Shown here piece after piece: positions 4,936 through 61,491 of a stretch of 64,000 nucleotides of DNA. Source of the stretch: Shigella phage SHFML-26; the sequence record KX130862; one strand, given 5' to 3'. Position 1 is the stretch's first letter, and every line of letters begins with the position of its first letter. Position numbers and translations under genes: made by a program. A model generated the notes under the pieces. The model worked only from the letters and a program-made list of their open reading frames with translations. It ran no database searches and had not been told where the DNA came from.

Positions 4936-4965
4936 ATTATACCACATCCTTGTGGTAAAGTAAAC
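4936..4965 (-). promoter_or_regulatory. T4-type early promoter (GTTTAC -35, 18-nt spacer, TATAAT -10) for rIIA.1-rIIA-rIIB
   Basis: Minus strand reads GTTTACTTTACCACAAGGATGTGGTATAAT. Confidence 0.6.
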
Positions 4966-6782
4966 TACTGACTCATCCATTCTTTACGAAGGTCAGCATT
5001 ATCTCCCATGAGCATTTCAAAAAGCTCTTTCCAGTTCTCAGGAAGTTTAACAACATCATATACTGGGTTTTGAATCATCTCACGATATTCAGATTTTTCC
5101 AAAGAGCCAAGTCCCTTAATATAACGGATGCTATGTTTAGGTAGAGCATCTTTGGCACTCTCATATTCAGCGACTGTATAAAACCATTCTTGTTTTTTAC
5201 CGACCTGAGCGATGATTACAGGAGTTTTGACAAAACGAATTCGTCCTTGCTCAAACAATTCTGGCCAATTACTAAAAAATCCGAGCAGAGAAGGATAAAT
5301 GCTTCCTAGACCATCATGGTCAGCATCAGTCATAATAGCAATATTATGATAATTCAAGTTTTCAGCTTTTTCACCGAGAACTAATCCAGTGATTGCGCAA
5401 ATATCAAACAGTTCTTTGTTTTTAAGCATATCTGCATAAGACATACCCCAACTGTTGAGAACTTTACCGCGCAATGGATAACCACCGTGAAGTTCTTTAT
5501 CACGAACATCAATAAGATATCCGATAGCAGAATCACCCTCAGTCAAGAAAAGAGTAGTATCAGCATCTTTACCGCAAAGATTCGCTTTGATATGTTTATG
5601 AACCTTAGCTTTAGAAGCCTTTTTAGCTGCTTTAGTTTCTGCTGCTTTTTCTGCCGCCAATTTACGAGCCAAAGCAGCTTCAATAATCGGCATTAGAATT
5701 GCTTCATTATTTAGAATAGCACGTGAAATCTTTTTAGCATCAAGCTGAATATGACTACGGATTTCACCAAATGGAGAAGTCAAACGCTCTTTAGTTTGAG
5801 AATCAAATCGCATGTTTTTCATATCACGGACAAACATAACGATAGTCAAACATTCTTTAACGCGTGCTTTAGTCACATCAATTTTGAACTTACGTTTGAT
5901 TTGTGGAATAAGGTCTTCACAAATATCATCCATAACACAGTCAATGTGATGGCCACCATTCTTAGTGTGGATGTTATTCACATAAGTTAATTGACGAAAT
6001 CCATCCGGTGAACGACCAACTGCAATAGAACAATTTTCTTGTTCTTGAACAATAGCATGCTCATCATATTGGCGTGCATATTTCTTAAAATTGCCCTGAA
6101 CCTTTTTACCATTAAAGGTAAATTGAATATCAGGATAAACTACTGCAAGTGTCTGGAGACGATCTAATGTAATGTCAAGATAAACTTGGGACAGCTCATT
6201 AGTTTCAAATGACATAAAATCAGGAATGAAAGTAACACGAGTTCCTTTCCATTTTCCAGGAATATCTTCCCATGATTTATTTTCCATGCCATTTGAACAA
6301 CGAACTACAATATTATTTTGACCATCACCAGTTTCACCGACAAACATCACAGAAAAAATGTTAGTTAAACTAGAACCAACACCGTTCATACCACCGGTGA
6401 CACGTTCTTTATCATCACCGAAGTTACCACCTGCTTTTGGAATAGTCCATGCAGCAACAGGACCAGGAATTTCTTCACCGGTAGGTGTTTTAACCATCGC
6501 TTGTGGAATACCACGACCGTTATCTTCAACTGTTACTTGATTGTTTTTAATAGTAACATTAATTTTATTTGCGAATTTAAACTTAGTACGAATACCTTCA
6601 TCTACTGAGTTATCGATAATTTCATCAATAAGCTTAACAAGACCAGGTACATACTGAACACTTTCCCATTTACCAAACAGAAAGCGCTCATGCATTTCAT
6701 TAGCTGAAGAGCCAATGTACATGCCGCTACGCTTTTTGATATGTTCAATATCACTCAGAATTTTAATTTCATTCTTAATCAT
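4965..6782 (-). CDS. 39: DNA topoisomerase II large subunit (gene 39), single unsplit ORF of 605 aa
   Basis: GHKL ATPase and Toprim-like motifs (DNGRGIP, TEGDSA); ATG at 6780-6782 behind GAGGA; no gene-60 split or bypass gap. Confidence 0.9.
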   Translation of the reverse strand: MIKNEIKILSDIEHIKKRSGMYIGSSANEMHERFLFGKWESVQYVPGLVKLIDEIIDNSVDEGIRTKFKFANKINVTIKNNQVTVEDNGRGIPQAMVKTPTGEEIPGPVAAWTIPKAGGNFGDDKERVTGGMNGVGSSLTNIFSVMFVGETGDGQNNIVVRCSNGMENKSWEDIPGKWKGTRVTFIPDFMSFETNELSQVYLDITLDRLQTLAVVYPDIQFTFNGKKVQGNFKKYARQYDEHAIVQEQENCSIAVGRSPDGFRQLTYVNNIHTKNGGHHIDCVMDDICEDLIPQIKRKFKIDVTKARVKECLTIVMFVRDMKNMRFDSQTKERLTSPFGEIRSHIQLDAKKISRAILNNEAILMPIIEAALARKLAAEKAAETKAAKKASKAKVHKHIKANLCGKDADTTLFLTEGDSAIGYLIDVRDKELHGGYPLRGKVLNSWGMSYADMLKNKELFDICAITGLVLGEKAENLNYHNIAIMTDADHDGLGSIYPSLLGFFSNWPELFEQGRIRFVKTPVIIAQVGKKQEWFYTVAEYESAKDALPKHSIRYIKGLGSLEKSEYREMIQNPVYDVVKLPENWKELFEMLMGDNADLRKEWMSQ

Positions 6783-6834
6783 CACTTATCCTCGTTTGGT
6801 TTCGGGAATATTATACTCCGGTAATCATAAAGCT

Positions 6835-21111: not shown

Positions 21112-21363
21112 TTAAAACTTCTGCAAATCACATGTTACAAACTGTTTCTCTAACTTGGCGATTTTACGAAAGTATCTTTTGCATTGACGAATCTGTCGCT
21201 TTGTAGGGCGCACAACAAACTTAATAAATTCCACTCGACCAAATGGAGGGCTTTCTTCTGCCGGAATATCTAATACTAATTCCCACGTATCTGCAATAAG
21301 TGCTTTGAATTGAGTATTTTTCCTGACGTTATACGGAGTAGGTTTAAATAAAACAATATGCAT
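21112..21363 (-). CDS. basic small protein (61.4 position; possible TifA-like)
   Basis: ORF track 21112..21405; start moved to M15 to abut dmd; K/R-rich. Confidence 0.4.
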   Translation of the reverse strand: MHIVLFKPTPYNVRKNTQFKALIADTWELVLDIPAEESPPFGRVEFIKFVVRPTKRQIRQCKRYFRKIAKLEKQFVTCDLQKF

Positions 21364-21364
21364 A

Positions 21365-21547
21365 TTATCCTCGGCAATCCACTTCACATACTTTCTTGTC
21401 ATCAATGAAAGCTTTAACTAATGCTTTATTAACTTCAGCATATTGAGTAGTAGCCCATTGAACGTCATCTTTCATCATTGTGATCTCTTTAGTAAACATG
21501 CTTTCGTTCTTAAACCACCCCATAAAAACTACCTTTACCAATTCCAT
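21365..21547 (-). CDS. dmd: Dmd antitoxin (inhibitor of RnlA/LsoA)
   Basis: 60-aa ORF recognised as Dmd; directly upstream of gene 41 region. Confidence 0.75.
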   Translation of the reverse strand: MELVKVVFMGWFKNESMFTKEITMMKDDVQWATTQYAEVNKALVKAFIDDKKVCEVDCRG

Positions 21548-27195: not shown

Positions 27196-29895
27196 TCAGC
27201 CAAACAGGAAGTCTAACGAAGCTTTTTCTTCATAGTCCATACCTGCCGATTCACACATACCTGCAAGCGGCTTAACAAACGATTTTTGGAACAAAGTTGA
27301 GTAGTCAATCCAAGATAGTACGTCAGAACGAATTTCTTTTGGAAGTTCTGTACCTGATGGCCAAGCAATGCACTTGTCACCAAATGGATTTCCTTCACGT
27401 AATGGAAGAACCATTACTTTATTTCCATCCAAAATTGGAGCTACACCTAAACCACTAACAGCTCGACGATAAGTTAGCACACCACGAATATGGAATGGGC
27501 ATTTAAATCCTGGCCAACCTTTATCATCATATTTCGCTATATCGTTCGCAGTTTTTACTTCAGCAATAACTTTATAGTCAAGTTGACGATATTCTTTCTC
27601 GAAGTTCTTGTAGTATTCTTGGACAGACTCTTCACCTTCCTGAAGAATACGACGAATACTTTCTTCGAGAGCTTCTTGCACCGCTTTTGGTGTTGAACTC
27701 TGCTGAGTTTCCATACCCATGATTTTTAGATGCGGTTCGGCAAATCGCTTATCTTCCATATCATAAACGTTCAGAGCATAACGTTTTTTCGCTTTCCAAA
27801 ATCCACCAACACCCTTTGAACCAAGCGGAGGGCAAGAAATAGCTTCACGGTCCATATGCATCAGATGCTCGCGGTTATTCATATAATCACATAACTCACG
27901 ATATGCAACATCAATCATAGGTTCCATCTTTTTCTTACCAAACTGATTCATGAATTCAACTAAATCATTTTGTTCTTTAAAGCGGTCAAGACCTACTTTT
28001 TCAATTACTTTATCTACACAAACATATACCGAATCAGTATCACCTGCTGCGATGAAATCTTCACCATTAGTTCCACATACTTTATTCAGATATTCATTAA
28101 TTTTGCGAGCAATCCATTGAATACCGACTTGACCGAAAATTGTGATAGCAGTAGCATTTCGCAAATCATAGTAGCGGAAATGAATATTACCAAGAGCACC
28201 ATAAAGACTGTTAATAAGAATTTTACGGTTCAACTGATTTGTGTTAGCAAGTGTAGCAGCTTTTTCACATTCTTCAATCAGACTGTTAAGAACAGATTCG
28301 GTGTAATTCGATAATTCGTTTAAGAAATCATCATTGAACTTAACATATCGTTCAACTTCCGGTTTAGTTGAACAGGACCCTGCGCCTTTCATAATAATCT
28401 TTTTAATAGCTTCGGCATTCATTTCTTCAGCGAACATTTTCTTTTTCCAATCTTTACGCTGGAAAAATACTTTAGCGATTTCCTTTGGAATGATACCTTC
28501 TTGATGCTTATCATACATCCATCCATTCGGAGAACAAGAATATTCATCACTCGGTTTAGGAGCTGTTCCTGCGATATATTCATGAATTGGATGAACTTTA
28601 AACTGCCCACGAATAGTCTCAGGACTAATGTTAACCTGACGAATAATGCTCGGATACAGAGACGTCAAGTCAAAACTCATAATATATCGACGAGCAATTG
28701 GTTTAGGTTCAAATACAAATGCACCCGGAAAACTCTGTTTAACGTGCGAACCTTGTTGAGGAATAACCTTATGTTCACCTTTCAATGAGTTAAAAATAAT
28801 AGCATCCCAAGTTTTAATAGGACTCATTACACCAGAAAAAGGCATTTTAGCATAATAAGACATACTTAAAACTAGATCGATAAACCCGCGAATTTTATCA
28901 ATTGCTTGAACTGATTCTACGTCAATGATGTTATAACTAATGTATCGTTGATGATTAGTCTCACGAAGTTTATTAATAGGACCGTCGTATGGTAATTTAC
29001 CTTTTTTGGTTTCATGTTGAGCAACTGATTCCAAAGAGAATGACGGCAAATTAGTAAATGCGAATTTCTTATACAAATCTAAATAATCAAGAATAGATAC
29101 GCCATCAATAGAATAAATTTCTTTGCTACCGTACATATTTTGAATTAGTTTAGATTTTACCCGACCGATTGGAGAGAAACGTTTCATACTGCGTTCACCT
29201 AGAATCATTTTAACGCGATTCATAATATATGGAACGTCAAACCCCTCAATATTCCAACCAGTAAAAATAGCAGGTCGTTTCTGTTCCCAGAGATTGATAT
29301 ATTCCATGAGCATATCACGCTCATTATCGAATGGCATATAAATTACTCGGTCAAGAATTTCTTGAGGAACTTCATCACCACCTTCACAGTCAAGCTTAGC
29401 AGCTAACTTTGCATCCCATTTTGATACTGAACCGTACATTGAATTCAAAAGGTCGAAAACATAAAAACGATCATCAATTGAATCGTAATGAGTGATAGCA
29501 TCAATTTCATATTCAGCTTTCATTGGGTCAGGAAATTTATCACCAGTAACCTCAATGTCACAGTTAGCTACACGAACAAATTTTCGGTCATAAACAATTT
29601 CTGAACCATACGTATCACTGATATAAGCGAGTTTAAAATCGTTCATACCGAGAGCTTCGAGACCGATGTCTTCCATTCGTTTCATCCAATCTCGAGCATA
29701 TTTCATTGATGGTAAATTTTTGAGGTAGCGCTAGTTTTTACCATAGATGTCTTTGTACTTTGACTCTTCCTTACAATGCCTAAACATAGTTGGAAGATAT
29801 TCTACTTCACGAGTACGTTCCTTTCCGTTTTCATCAATATAACGTTCAACAATGTTATTTCCGACTGTTTCAATAGAGATATAAAATTCTTTCAT
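27196..29895 (-). CDS. 43: DNA polymerase (gene 43, family B), interrupted by in-frame TAG at 29731..29733 (codon 55); longest ORF 27196..29706
   Basis: ATG at 29893-29895 ([14 protein letters not shown]...); exo and pol motifs (FDIE, YGDTDS); translational operator hairpin upstream. Confidence 0.85.
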
Positions 29896-29945
29896 AGATA
29901 TTCCTTAGTTTATAGCCCGAGTTATTAGGCTCTTGATATATTATA
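29896..29945 (-). promoter_or_regulatory. gene 43 leader: translational operator hairpin (GAGCCUAAUAACUCGGGCU) plus SD, with upstream TATAAT -10 element
   Basis: Hairpin read directly at 29914-29932; matches known gp43 autoregulatory operator. Confidence 0.6.
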
Positions 29946-30196: not shown

Positions 30197-30976
30197 TTAA
30201 TTACCAATCGTATATTTAGGAACGAGTTTCCATTCATGCTTTTGTTTAAAAGAAATAACTCGGAAGTTATTAGTTAAATCTTTCATAAAAGTTCTTTGAC
30301 CAGGAACGATTTCAATCAGTCCCCAATCTTCTAATAGCCATGCAATCGAATCACGACGAACTTCATCTTCTTCTGTCATTTCAACTTGGCGACCATCCAT
30401 ACGAAGCATTTCTTTAAAATGAACGATATAGTGCTTGCAGATTTCAGTCAATCGACGAATCATCTGCTTCATCATTTCAATTTTATCTTCATCGGTCGGT
30501 TGACCGAACGTAATAACTCGGCAGCGTGACTGAAGTGGTTTAATAATACCATCAATATTATTAGCAGTAATAATAATACTGCAGTTTGAACTATAAGCTT
30601 CCATAAAGGAACGAAGATGTCGCTGAGACTCTGCTAACCCTGAGCGGTCAAATTCATCAATAACGATTACTTTTTGACGACCATCAAATGAAGCTGCACT
30701 AGCAAAATTAGTCAAAGGACCACGAACGAAATCAATTTTACAGTCTGATCCATTCACAAACATCATATCAGCATTTACATCATGACACAATGCTTTTGCT
30801 ACAGTTGTTTTACCTGTTCCTGGAGAAGGAGAATGAAGAATAATATGTGGAATTTTACCTTTACTTGTAATAGATTTAAAGGTTTCTTTATCAAAGGCGG
30901 GAAGAATACATTCATCGATAGTAGATGGACGATATTTCTGTTCAAGAATGTGTTCTTTTTCATTTACAGTAATCAT
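30197..30976 (-). CDS. 44: clamp-loader gp44 N-terminal 182 aa fused in frame to RegA C-terminal 77 aa (gene 62 absent)
   Basis: ATG at 30974-30976 behind GAGGA; Walker A GTGKTT, Walker B VIVIDEFD, SRC motif; tail YIVHFKEM...KYTIGN matches RegA C-terminus. Confidence 0.7.
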   Translation of the reverse strand: MITVNEKEHILEQKYRPSTIDECILPAFDKETFKSITSKGKIPHIILHSPSPGTGKTTVAKALCHDVNADMMFVNGSDCKIDFVRGPLTNFASAASFDGRQKVIVIDEFDRSGLAESQRHLRSFMEAYSSNCSIIITANNIDGIIKPLQSRCRVITFGQPTDEDKIEMMKQMIRRLTEICKHYIVHFKEMLRMDGRQVEMTEEDEVRRDSIAWLLEDWGLIEIVPGQRTFMKDLTNNFRVISFKQKHEWKLVPKYTIGN

Positions 30977-45980: not shown

Positions 45981-46484
45981 TCAAGTATTATAAAACATTT
46001 GATGCAATCGCTTATATTGCCGAATCATTTGGTCAGAAAAAGAATTTTGTGTTTCAAGCCATTCAATGTACTCTGCGGCAGCTTGCATTAAATTTCCTTC
46101 ATAACCATCAATATCTTTTTTCAATGCCACTTTAGCTAATGCATATGAAATACGTTCACCTTGAAAAGCGGCTTTAGGCTTCTGAGCATCTTGGCTAGTT
46201 CTCTCTACAACTTCTTCAATTTCGCCATTTTCAACGGATTCAGTATTCCACAAGCACCAATACGTAATTGGCTTATCATAGATGTTAATAATCTTTCCGT
46301 CGGAAAGTTCAATTTCAATAATTCCAGTATCAGGCTCTATATCATCTTCACATTCTTTTGTAAGTTCACGAACTTTAAAGACAGTACCTGCACTAAGTTC
46401 CGGCCAGTAATTACATAGCCCTGTATCAACACGATTAATTCTAAACCACTTATCTACTGTAATCATGTCCCATCTCCATATCAA
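45981..46484 (-). CDS. hypothetical protein (pin position)
   Basis: 167-aa ORF after gene 49; assignment by position only. Confidence 0.4.
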   Translation of the reverse strand: MIWRWDMITVDKWFRINRVDTGLCNYWPELSAGTVFKVRELTKECEDDIEPDTGIIEIELSDGKIINIYDKPITYWCLWNTESVENGEIEEVVERTSQDAQKPKAAFQGERISYALAKVALKKDIDGYEGNLMQAAAEYIEWLETQNSFSDQMIRQYKRLHQMFYNT

Positions 46485-52212: not shown

Positions 52213-52740
52213 TTATGCGAGTACCGTCTTTAACCGTTCTTCAAACTTCCGAAGAGTATTCTGGCGTTCAGCTCTTTGCTTTTTGTAAGTTTCAATACGC
52301 TCTGAAATGAGAGTGTATCGTTCATTTACTGATTCTTTCATAAAATCAGGAATTTCACGAGAAGCTTTAATCTCATCAAATTTATCAATAACAGCTTGCT
52401 CTTCAGCAATTAAGTTATCATACATCAAAATATCTTTCTTGATGAACTCAATATCTTCTTGAGTTACACGAGATAATTTAGATGCTTTATCCTTTTTGTA
52501 TTGTTCGTTAGTATCACGAGACCAGTGTAATGTACGATTTTTATTCGTATTCTTGTAAATTTCTACAATACCAATCTCATCAATAATAACGATCCAATTC
52601 CAACGGGATTTGTAAATTTGTCCTCCATCAACTGTAATTTCACCTCCGATTGAGATGTCATTAAAGAACTTGCTTTGTGCTTCAGATTTAAATTTACCAT
52701 CGTTGTAATTTACCAGGTTGAAAATATCTTTAGCGTTCAT
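52213..52740 (-). CDS. hypothetical protein
   Basis: Start moved to MNAKDIF behind GGAGG and early promoter. Confidence 0.5.
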   Translation of the reverse strand: MNAKDIFNLVNYNDGKFKSEAQSKFFNDISIGGEITVDGGQIYKSRWNWIVIIDEIGIVEIYKNTNKNRTLHWSRDTNEQYKKDKASKLSRVTQEDIEFIKKDILMYDNLIAEEQAVIDKFDEIKASREIPDFMKESVNERYTLISERIETYKKQRAERQNTLRKFEERLKTVLA

Positions 52741-52800
52741 TTTGTGTTCCTCCGTAGTTGATAGTTGTATAGTACCACAGAGGAACGGTCTTGTAAACAA

Positions 52801-53115
52801 CTAAAAGAAACTTCTTTCACAATTTTTTCCACTGAACCAAGCGCTCACTGCTTTCTTAGTCTCAGGAGCGGTGTTATCCATAAACCATTCAAAGGCAGCC
52901 TTTTTATGATTCTGGAGGGCTTCTCGGGCTTTAATCTGCTCACGGTCTATTAACACTAACATATGAGCCTTTCTTGTCACCATGGGCTTCTTATGATTTT
53001 TTGAATACTCCCAATCATTTGTCCATCGCATTGTCGTTGCGAACTGAAATACTGCTTCTTTAATTTTAGTTTCGTAAATTTCACGAGCCTTTGAGTATAA
53101 CATCATTACCTCCAT
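52801..53115 (-). CDS. hypothetical protein
   Basis: ORF track. Confidence 0.45.
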   Translation of the reverse strand: MEVMMLYSKAREIYETKIKEAVFQFATTMRWTNDWEYSKNHKKPMVTRKAHMLVLIDREQIKAREALQNHKKAAFEWFMDNTAPETKKAVSAWFSGKNCERSFF

Positions 53116-60616: not shown

Positions 60617-60954
60617 CTAGTACTCAATCCTCGATTATAAGAATCTACTAAACGGTCAACCATTGAATGACAAGCGGCTTTATCTTTCTCCTCCGCAACT
60701 GAACATTCTAAGGTATTCCACTTTTTAGCATATCGTTTTAACAATGTATCATTTTTGTATCTGCTTGATTTATCTCTTTCTCCGTCTTTATATGCATATA
60801 TTAATTTCTGCGCAAATTCAGCTTGGCATGCTTTATTTTTCCCGCAATAATCCGCTGCAGTACGGTTTACATACTCTCTAATTTCAGTATATGATGTATC
60901 TGCTAACGCAGAAAATGAAATTAATCCTATACATAAAACCAAAATTTTAGTCAT
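60613..60954 (-). CDS. secreted protein (signal peptide)
   Basis: ORF track; N-terminal signal sequence. Confidence 0.45.
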   Translation of the reverse strand: MTKILVLCIGLISFSALADTSYTEIREYVNRTAADYCGKNKACQAEFAQKLIYAYKDGERDKSSRYKNDTLLKRYAKKWNTLECSVAEEKDKAACHSMVDRLVDSYNRGLSTR

Positions 60955-61321
60955 TTACTATTTCCAAAAGTTTATTATTTTTAAGGTAATTAGCCTTTTC
61001 TAGGACTTCAGAAGCATATTTAGAACCTGCTTTAACATTCCATCCCGAATTATAAGAGGATATTGCTTTTCTTATATCGCCCTTATGTATATTTAACCAA
61101 TAAGAAAGTTCAATGTACGCCCAGGAAGCTGAATTGGACCGTTTATTCAACATTCTTTTTATTTCAGCATCGGTCATATTATAACCAAGTTCCTTGACTC
61201 TCGCTCGCATAGTAGGCAAATAATTTTGGAACATTCCATAGGCATGATGCTTTGGTTTAGATTTTAAATTAACTCCGGCAGAGCTTTCTTGCCACAAAAT
61301 AGCAGCCATTATATGACCCAA
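60947..61321 (-). CDS. lytic-transglycosylase-like (SLT domain) protein
   Basis: ES...AYGMFQ-type SLT motif. Confidence 0.5.
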   Translation of the reverse strand: MGHIMAAILWQESSAGVNLKSKPKHHAYGMFQNYLPTMRARVKELGYNMTDAEIKRMLNKRSNSASWAYIELSYWLNIHKGDIRKAISSYNSGWNVKAGSKYASEVLEKANYLKNNKLLEIVND

Positions 61322-61491
61322 TCCGCTCTTATGGATGTTTTTGTGTGTTTTATATTTTCCATCCTTAGAAAATTGTTCCCGAATTGATACGCGTAACGCA
61401 TGTTATCGAGTTGGACATTACTGAAAGTATGCTCGGAGCTATGTGCCATCATTGAAATGGCCAATAGACCAGCGAGTAGTGCTTTTCTCAT
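61309..61491 (-). CDS. small secreted protein
   Basis: ORF track; signal-like N-terminus. Confidence 0.35.
   Translation of the reverse strand: MRKALLAGLLAISMMAHSSEHTFSNVQLDNMRYAYQFGNNFLRMENIKHTKTSIRADWVI

Follow-up and report, generated by a model that had tools for sequence, protein, structure and literature searches.

An in-frame stop codon in DNA polymerase gene 43 of the deposited Shigella phage SHFML-26 genome as a probable artefact of sequencing or assembly

The DNA polymerase gene (gene 43) of Shigella phage SHFML-26, as written in sequence record KX130862, is interrupted by an in-frame TAG which very probably is a sequencing or assembly artefact of the deposited genome. At this stop, KX130862 and its RefSeq copy are most likely erroneous, or at least unrepresentative, and do not show a property of the viable phage. 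Genes 43, 44 and 62 are essential for T4 DNA replication. A lytic T-even phage is not viable without gp43, gp44 and gp62, and the stop therefore reflects the quality of the record and not the biology of the phage. The first-pass annotation had stated that a wild-type phage cannot carry a stop in gene 43, and this is upheld here.

The deposited record and the phage

The DNA analysed here (the window) comprises the initial 64,000 nucleotides of KX130862, the genome of the T4-like Tequatrovirus SHFML-26. The rIIA, gp46 and NrdD proteins of the window gave exact matches that are unique to SHFML-26, and no independent assembly encoding these unique proteins was found. The genome had earlier been taken as that of T4; the exact protein matches identify it instead as SHFML-26, and local BLAST showed a mosaic that is 84-98% identical to T4 and offset by about 2.5 kb. 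The window coordinates nearly coincide with those of NC_000866 despite this mosaic identity. A contamination mosaic from the sibling phages SHFML-11 or SHBML-50-1 is not supported, the best identities being only 97.6-98.8%.

SHFML-26 (ATCC PTA-121236) is one of the five lytic phages in ShigaShield/ShigActive, a cocktail that as a whole is lytic on many wild Shigella strains, and its genome was obtained from MiSeq reads for whose assembly and annotation CLC Genomics Workbench was run with default settings (PMC5376334, PMC4745833). A pan-genome study from 2021 dropped SHFML-26 owing to reading-frame shifts in several genes that deprived it of components of the core genome (PMC8056088).

Gene 43 as written

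Gene 43 of T4 (NC_000866 27197..29893) is the same gene in the same position, with the same neighbours (between imm.1 and 43.1/regA) and the same regulatory region. Read on the minus strand, the gene in the window starts with the ATG at 29895..29893 and meets the in-frame TAG at 29733..29731, past which the same frame runs on into the 836-codon ORF 27196..29706, precisely as had been described in the first-pass annotation. A single uninterrupted gene 43 ORF of about 898 codons with the N-terminal domain is thus absent, the longest one encoding 836 aa from the internal Met63. Both Pfam domains DNA_pol_B and DNA_pol_B_exo1 score above their gathering cut-offs in this 836-aa piece, the match to DNA_pol_B_exo1 beginning at profile position 64 of 242. 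The hairpin region upstream of the gene (Table 1) corresponds to the translational operator region in T4, and columns 1-70 of the alignment, on the side of the ribosome-binding site and operator, are invariant among the window, SHBML-50-1, T4_ev151 and RB18.

Three abnormal products of 836, 54 and 259 aa are exactly the deposited proteins ANN86941.1, ANN86942.1 and ANN86944.1. In the deposit, each of the pieces of 836 aa and 54 aa appears as a 'DNA polymerase' CDS of its own, which places the lesion in the deposit itself.

Table 1. Features of the SHFML-26 window bearing on the interruption of gene 43 and on other frame disruptions
Feature	Coordinates	Strand	Remarks
Gene 43, family-B replicative DNA polymerase	27196..29895	minus	2,700 nt, 899 codon positions, TAG at codon 55
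gp43 N-terminal fragment, 54 codons	29731..29895	minus	Identical to ANN86942.1 / YP_009279043.1, labelled 'DNA polymerase'
gp43 remainder, 836 codons from ATG 29706 (wild-type Met63)	27196..29706	minus	Deposited as ANN86941.1 / YP_009279042.1, 'DNA polymerase'
Lesion cluster	29700..29732	minus	A inserted (coding strand) at 29732, 29726 and 29713; G>T at 29700 (D65Y)
Gene 43 ribosome-binding site and upstream hairpin region	29896..29932	minus	Intact, same as in relatives
ORF 43.1, 73 aa	29974..30195	minus	Intact, between both lesions; identical to ANN86943.1, common to many Tequatroviruses
gp44(1-181)::RegA(45-122) in-frame fusion, 259 aa	30197..30976	minus	Exact match to deposited ANN86944.1, 'clamp loader subunit'
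Gene 61.4	21112..21405	minus	1-nt deletion at about 21125, private to the window; all 11 panel members differ
Gene vs.1	60950..61491	minus	Split by the loss of 1 nt from a C run at about 61380; looks private to the record

The lesion cluster in gene 43

In the alignment to SHBML-50-1, T4_ev151 and RB18, the window has AAAAACT[A]GCGCT[A]CCTCAAAAATTT[A]CCATCAATGAAA[T]ATGCT where the relatives have AAAAACTGCGCTCCTCAAAAATTTCCATCAATGAAAGATGCT. It is the A inserted at 29732 (plus-strand numbering) that creates the TAG. As a consequence of the cluster, residues 55-60 of gp43 read stop-RYLKN in place of CAPQKF, with one extra residue and the substitution D65Y; these are also the features that set the window copy apart from gene 43 of T4. 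The three insertions bring the gene to 899 codons versus 898, and without them it measures 2,697 nt and encodes 898 aa. The first-pass annotation had explained the region by three single-A insertions and one G-to-T change, with 899 versus 898 aa, and the alignment of the relatives proved it correct in every detail. It had also called for alignment to gene 43 of T4, T2 and T6; of the close relatives aligned here, none (0/8) shows the nucleotides of the window at the stop. The sequence anticipated for gene 43 if the cluster is an artefact is ...GGTAAAAACTGCGCTCCTCAAAAATTTCCATCAATGAAAGATGCT...

The changes of the cluster are private to the window, all eight close relatives aligned being different. 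Gene 43 contains ten positions at which the window differs from the whole panel, and four of them fall inside 33 nt; this clustering of the four changes exceeds chance (P ~0.0013 by simulation). The sequence of the cluster was found in none of 501 matching phage records, all of which span 598 nt versus 601 nt of the query, nor was it found in IMG/VR, GTDB genome contigs or JGI metagenomes. Among ten contigs with the same primase, all the polymerase genes recorded (8) encode 898 aa. A protein collection with 15 billion entries does not contain the repaired 898-aa protein.

With regard to T4 gp43, a family-B polymerase with 3'-5' exonuclease, the repaired product has the length of 898 aa and four residues different. 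At the nucleotide level, the repaired gene differs from that of T4 by 70 nt, corresponding to 66 codons with synonymous changes and four amino-acid changes. Only three of these four lie outside the cluster, the fourth being D65Y. Judged from these substitutions, gene 43 outside the cluster is under intact purifying selection; with 66 synonymous versus three amino-acid changes there, it is a functional gene that was broken freshly.

A second lesion in the clamp-loader genes

The fusion of gp44 and RegA (Table 1) arises from a private deletion of 1,114 bp with its junction at about 30430/30431. It takes away all of gene 62 together with the 3' part of gene 44 and the 5' part of regA, and gp44 is left without its C-terminal 138 residues. 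In Pfam terms, the fusion protein consists of AAA, a partial Gp44_lid and positions 27-122 of Translat_reg. The deletion is located about 700 bp from the cluster in gene 43, both defects lying inside about 750 bp. The first-pass annotation had overlooked this neighbouring deletion, which is the strongest argument.

The junction falls in frame, on a codon boundary, and its microhomology amounts to 1-2 nt only. So short a microhomology rules out that 44/regA was joined by deletion between repeats or by de Bruijn collapse; the junction fits an end-to-end join of contigs or a chimeric read and not a repeat-mediated collapse. As one contiguous match, it was found in 0 of 504 phage records, and it is absent from IMG/VR, GTDB contigs and JGI metagenomes. 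The missing 1.1 kb was not found relocated elsewhere within the 64-kb window.

Two further genes carry frame disruptions. Gene 61.4 ends with ...VTCDLQKF in the window versus ...VTCDYAEVLK in the relatives, and the vs.1 region comprises 261 nt in the window versus 262 nt in all six top phage records among the matches listed.

Hairpin potential of the mutated stretch

The third insertion, which converts TTTCC to TTTACC, fully complements the GGTAAA that lies 26 nt upstream, and a bulge disappears from the predicted hairpin, with a ddG of -3.6 kcal/mol; by folding, it belongs to the top 0.7% of possible single insertions. Insertions one and two make T-GCGC-T into the palindrome TAGCGCTA. Neither of these two alters the predicted hairpin, which is destabilised by the G>T change. 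When random sets of three insertions and one substitution were considered, 15.5% folded equally well or better. No second copy of the mutated stretch that might have served as an ectopic donor exists within three mismatches in the window. A template-switch model is supported for one change of the four only. The third insertion resembles the quasi-palindrome mutations of T4 rII and the artefacts of fold-back chimeric reads; unlike in those systems, neither the G>T change nor insertions one and two stabilise the hairpin.

Origin of the lesions

Several observations are those expected of a faulty record. The lesions are private to one record and occur in none of its independent relatives; the record as written is non-viable and the phage is known to propagate; and further private frame disruptions, in vs.1 and 61.4, are accompanied by an independent report of poor quality (PMC8056088). 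With respect to the possible course of events, the 43-44 region may have been poorly covered or assembled and contig ends may have been joined without overlap, which would leave a junction free of homology. A low-quality consensus beside such a join could have given the cluster of indels, after which the annotation software would have taken the 44::RegA chimera and both pieces of the polymerase for genes.

The first-pass annotation had offered a choice of origins, from which the local sequencing error has survived, widened here to a faulty deposited assembly, and the acridine-type mutant, recoding and corruption after deposition have been set aside. The error is favoured because the lesion is private, a second private lesion is near, the phage is a commercial lytic one and the record has been rejected elsewhere. 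Some features nevertheless speak against an artefact. Errors of Illumina sequencing and CLC assembly seldom take the form of three insertions of the same base outside homopolymers. The frame-restoring net +3 and the 44::RegA junction on a codon boundary look tidy, each having a chance of about 1 in 3 or lower, and the third insertion perfecting a quasi-palindrome is also expected of a genuine template-switch mutation. Furthermore, the siblings SHBML-50-1 and SHFML-11 from the same pipeline keep intact genes 43, 44 and 62, and the pipeline therefore does not always yield such lesions.

If the lesions were real, they might have resided in defective genomes of the sequenced lysate that were sustained at high multiplicity by intact co-infecting siblings, the assembler having taken the variant path. 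This is unlikely, although the microhomology of the junction resembles that of illegitimate recombination, headful packaging of the T4 type tolerates a deletion of 1.1 kb, the third insertion is like those of template-switch mutations, and the pristine remainder of gene 43 is compatible with a real mutational event provided that it was very recent. It is not evident what edge in replication would make a genome without polymerase and clamp loader the majority, and the four-change cluster, the deletion and the two frameshifts would all have to share one dominant haplotype. Moreover, nothing alike occurs in other Tequatrovirus records or metagenomes, and the whole cluster, despite its third insertion, folds no better than random sets do. 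It is quite improbable that the SHFML-26 stock was dominated by a 'cheater' genome, without working polymerase through an indel cluster of the template-switch type and without clamp loader through the deletion that gives the gp44::RegA chimera, complemented by intact co-infecting genomes during industrial production at high multiplicity. A laboratory origin, either as an amber or acridine-type allele of gene 43 or as an engineered replication-deficient phage, is very improbable. In its favour, the TAG in gene 43 recalls the classical conditional-lethal ambers of T4, the three frame-restoring +1 shifts recall the Crick-Brenner triple mutants, and 44::RegA is joined at a codon boundary. The TAG, however, comes from an insertion and not from a base substitution, and after it come two more insertions and a substitution. 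The annotation is naive, with two 'DNA polymerase' CDSs and a 'clamp loader' and the mutations unmentioned, and a non-replicating phage would need a complementing host to give a high-titre lytic preparation. SHFML-26 is a wastewater-type isolate and no genetics strain, and as a component of a lytic food-safety and therapeutic product it has no reported genetic manipulation (PMC5376334, PMC4745833).

Programmed recoding, by UAG read-through or bypass, or a functional gene 43 split in two pieces, as occurs naturally in some phages, deserves hardly any credence. The frame is kept across the stop and translational bypassing is known for the T-even gene 60 (annotated in NC_000866), but the interruption is unconserved, being present in 0 of about 500 relatives, whereas real recoding sites and split genes are conserved within clades. 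The 64-kb window contains no tRNA gene and hence no suppressor tRNA, the usual T4 tRNA region lying outside it, and no Shine-Dalgarno sequence is visible upstream of the internal ATG at 29706. A read-through product would have six substituted residues and one inserted residue, as well as D65Y, in a segment that is invariant among relatives, and the absent gene 62 and the truncated gene 44 would stay unrescued. Alteration of the window after deposition, by data handling or deliberate change, merits equally little belief. The match to the deposit was made at the level of proteins, which leaves it some room; yet the 836-aa, 54-aa and 259-aa products equal the deposited GenBank/RefSeq proteins of SHFML-26, and frameshifts in the record were noted independently in the paper from 2021 (PMC8056088).

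Comparison with known cases and significance

Like the classical gene 43 ambers and proflavine frameshift clusters of T4, the SHFML-26 lesion places a UAG within a gene essential for replication and has shifts that restore the frame. Those classical alleles are single substitutions or single indels, selected in laboratory T4 with the use of suppressor hosts. In contrast to them, the TAG of the window was made by insertion, no mutagenesis is reported for this product phage, and its clamp-loader deletion is beyond rescue by any suppressor. A parallel may be seen in Shigella phage Sf25 (MF327009), which, like SHFML-26, was left out of the same pan-genome study for frameshifts (PMC8056088). Its record has private structural anomalies in this gene cluster as well: gene 43 contains a tandem duplication of 147 nt, and gene 62 lacks 139 nt. 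The two cases differ in their lesions, laboratory and pipeline, SHFML-26 being characterized by small insertions and a 1.1-kb deletion.

The stop in gene 43 has little biological significance and matters for curation. KX130862 and its RefSeq copy spread two bogus 'DNA polymerase' proteins (836 and 54 aa) into NCBI nr and UniRef, together with the chimeric 'clamp loader / translation repressor' protein of KX130862, and the SHFML-26 genome was submitted as safety evidence for a food-safety product. If the lesions were real, they would point to a build-up of defective genomes in industrially produced phage stocks, which would be of practical interest.

Two other apparent disruptions in the window represent natural variation. 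The frameshift in nrdC.9 at about 52828 is a natural polymorphism, the sequence being 100% identical to that of ECML-134 and of the same length in T4. The 'truncation' of gene 39 reflects the fused 39-60 form held by the window as a 606-aa ORF (4965..6785), which resembles the 605-aa CDS of EC121.

An in-frame stop codon in the DNA polymerase gene

Gene 43 of Shigella phage SHFML-26 is read on the minus strand from the ATG at 29895..29893 through 54 sense codons to a TAG at 29733..29731, beyond which the frame continues unchanged into an ORF of 836 aa (27196..29706, counted from the ATG at 29706), as the first-pass annotation had described. That annotation had explained the interruption by three single-A insertions and one change of G to T. 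The reconstruction proved to be exact: alignment with three relatives and the indel tables of larger panels both agree with it, and the relatives lack the three extra A residues and carry G at 29700. The sequence across the cluster is AAAAACT[A]GCGCT[A]CCTCAAAAATTT[A]CCATCAATGAAA[T]ATGCT in the window and AAAAACTGCGCTCCTCAAAAATTTCCATCAATGAAAGATGCT in the relatives. The three insertions are of the same base and lie in non-homopolymer context. The window differs from all panel members at ten positions of gene 43, four of them inside 33 nt (P ~0.0013 for this clustering in a simulation). A 601-nt stretch with the cluster is less than 99% identical to each of the 501 phage records matching it, and the three extra bases are present in none of the matches listed among these records; the lesion was likewise not found in IMG/VR, GTDB genome contigs and JGI metagenomes. 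The stop codon and the indel cluster are confirmed in the window and are not a product of chance.

The first-pass annotation had taken the gene as that of T4. This was rejected, since local BLAST identified the window as a T-even mosaic, although its gene coordinates nearly coincide with those of T4; it begins ~2.5 kb ahead of T4's conventional origin, and the closest records of the phage collection reach ~97% identity. Without the three extra bases gene 43 has 2,697 nt, of which 70 differ from T4, with a synonymous change in 66 codons and 4 amino-acid changes, one of them (D65Y) within the cluster; the pattern is alike against four other relatives. The RBS and the upstream hairpin region show no difference in the alignment with three relatives. 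Judged from these comparisons, the gene has been under full purifying selection up to essentially now. A decaying pseudogene was ruled out by the synonymous-dominated differences and the intact RBS and hairpin region, and a conserved recoding site was also ruled out. Apart from the interruption the locus is a T4-type gene 43 throughout, and its likeness to the classical gene 43 ambers is only superficial.

A deletion fusing gene 44 to regA

Comparing the window over its full length brought out a second lesion, ~700 bp upstream of where gene 43 begins: at ~30430/30431 the window lacks 1,114 bp found in T4, e11/2 and EC121. Gene 62 is lost entirely through the deletion, while regA loses its 5' part and gene 44 its 3' part; the junction (…ATCTGCAAGCAC|TATATCGTT…) has a microhomology of only 1-2 nt. 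According to Pfam, the resulting chimera combines an AAA domain with positions 1-27 of the gp44 lid and 27-122 of Translat_reg; it was deposited as "clamp loader subunit" (ANN86944.1) and bears the UniRef name 'Translation repressor protein'. No copy of the missing 1,114 bp, gene 62 included, occurs elsewhere within the 64-kb window. As one contiguous match the junction was found in 0 of 504 related records, nor was it found in IMG/VR, GTDB genome contigs or JGI metagenomes.

Lesions and the chimeric reading frame in the window
Feature	Position	Gene or frame	Remarks
Inserted A (coding strand), three	29732, 29726, 29713 (plus-strand positions)	gene 43	alignment and indel tables
G>T	29700	gene 43	D65Y; alignment and indel tables
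In-frame chimera gp44(1-181)::RegA(45-122)	30197-30976		259 aa
Private 1-nt deletion	~21125	gene 61.4, ORF 21112-21405, minus strand	11/11 panel members differ from window
1-nt deletion in C run	~61380	gene vs.1, 60950-61491, minus strand	vs.1 split into two frames

Other variants in the window

The deletion in gene 61.4 changes the C-terminal residues of its product to ...CDLQKF*, which are otherwise ...CDYAEVLK*. In vs.1, each of the top six phage records listed has one more base, and by this sequence comparison the deletion looks private to the SHFML-26 record. A +1 frameshift in a T run of nrdC.9 (52700-52960) relative to e11/2 was dismissed as a natural length polymorphism, being 100% common to ECML-134 and equal to the T4 length, with e11/2 as the odd one out. 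Genes 39 and 60 form a single fused ORF of 606 codons (4965-6785) that lacks both the mobA insertion and the bypass element found in T4 gene 60; EC121 has a comparable single CDS of 605 aa, and the fused ORF is a natural T-even variant. At 46045-46236 a dense patch of 22 positions departs from every one of the three references aligned in this stretch; the patch probably represents a mosaic segment whose source lineage lies outside the small panel.

Origin of the interruption

As T4 genetics has established, DNA replication cannot proceed without genes 43, 44 and 62, and therefore the record as written describes a phage that is impossible to produce. SHFML-26 (ATCC PTA-121236) is among the five lytic phages of the ShigaShield/ShigActive preparation, and its genome was put together from MiSeq reads in CLC Genomics Workbench, which also served for annotation, at default settings (PMC5376334, PMC4745833). 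A Tevenvirinae pan-genome study left it out, together with Sf25, phiAS5, nt-1 and VH7D, because frameshifts in a number of its genes deprived it of core-genome components (PMC8056088), so that the defect had already been noticed in general terms.

The interruption of gene 43 is judged not to be a real biological feature, and an error in the deposited assembly is very probably its explanation, because two independent private lesions fall within ~750 bp of a 169-kb genome, the junction of the large deletion is homology-free and the same record has further private frameshifts. The region may have been poorly covered or fragmented, with contigs joined without overlap and a consensus that would be wrong close to a join. 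Genuine defective genomes dominating the sequenced lysate are an improbable source, since a single dominant haplotype, for which no advantage is evident, would have to carry several independent lesions. A classical or engineered mutant is less probable still: no mutagenesis has been reported for SHFML-26, an insertion gave rise to the TAG, and the pieces were annotated naively by the depositors.

Recoding is scarcely credible, and so is a functional split gene, given that the interruption is conserved in no relative, the 64-kb window contains no tRNA, the internal ATG has no preceding RBS and the clamp loader would stay unrescued. Equally implausible is corruption after deposit, which is excluded by the exact match of the window products to the deposited proteins. 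Those of rIIA, gp46 and NrdD are exact matches unique to SHFML-26, whose accession is KX130862 (PMC6563131), and the 836-aa ORF (ANN86941.1/YP_009279042.1) and the 54-aa fragment (ANN86942.1/YP_009279043.1) are both deposited as "DNA polymerase"; the lesion therefore belongs to the GenBank/RefSeq sequence and is no later introduction. Exact look-up of the repaired 898-aa polymerase, whether residue 65 is D or Y, found it nowhere among 15 billion proteins.

An imperfect inverted repeat surrounds the cluster at 29704-29749 (CATTGATGGTAAA / TTTACCATAGATG, 13 nt, spacer of 20 nt). The wild-type hairpin is the same except for a one-base bulge, which is abolished by the third insertion, perfecting the quasi-palindrome GGTAAA…TTTACC (ddG -3.6 kcal/mol), a result matched by only 0.7% of the single insertions possible. 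Insertions one and two make the palindrome TAGCGCTA and leave the predicted fold unchanged, G>T is destabilising for it, and the fold of the cluster is equalled or bettered in 15.5% of random sets that combine three insertions with one substitution. As a test of a fold-back or template-switch origin, these predicted folds would fit a genuine mutation as well as an artefact of the library.

The closest analogue to the SHFML-26 record is that of Sf25 (MF327009.1), likewise flawed and from another laboratory. Its replication cluster (120602-125150) has anomalies of its own: in gene 43, codons ~106-154 are duplicated in tandem and in frame (147 nt), so that the product has 947 aa, and gene 62 has lost 139 nt internally; frameshifts were the ground for its omission from the pan-genome study (PMC8056088).

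The locus is of interest for curation only, as spurious fragments of the polymerase, along with a chimeric protein, have spread into nr, RefSeq and UniRef. In a 90%-identity protein collection, the cluster that holds the 836-aa fragment is represented by an E. coli OpgD glucan-biosynthesis protein, as are most of its listed members, and the 54-aa fragment has an unrelated 649-aa protein as its cluster-mate; both clusters look like faulty mergers within this collection.
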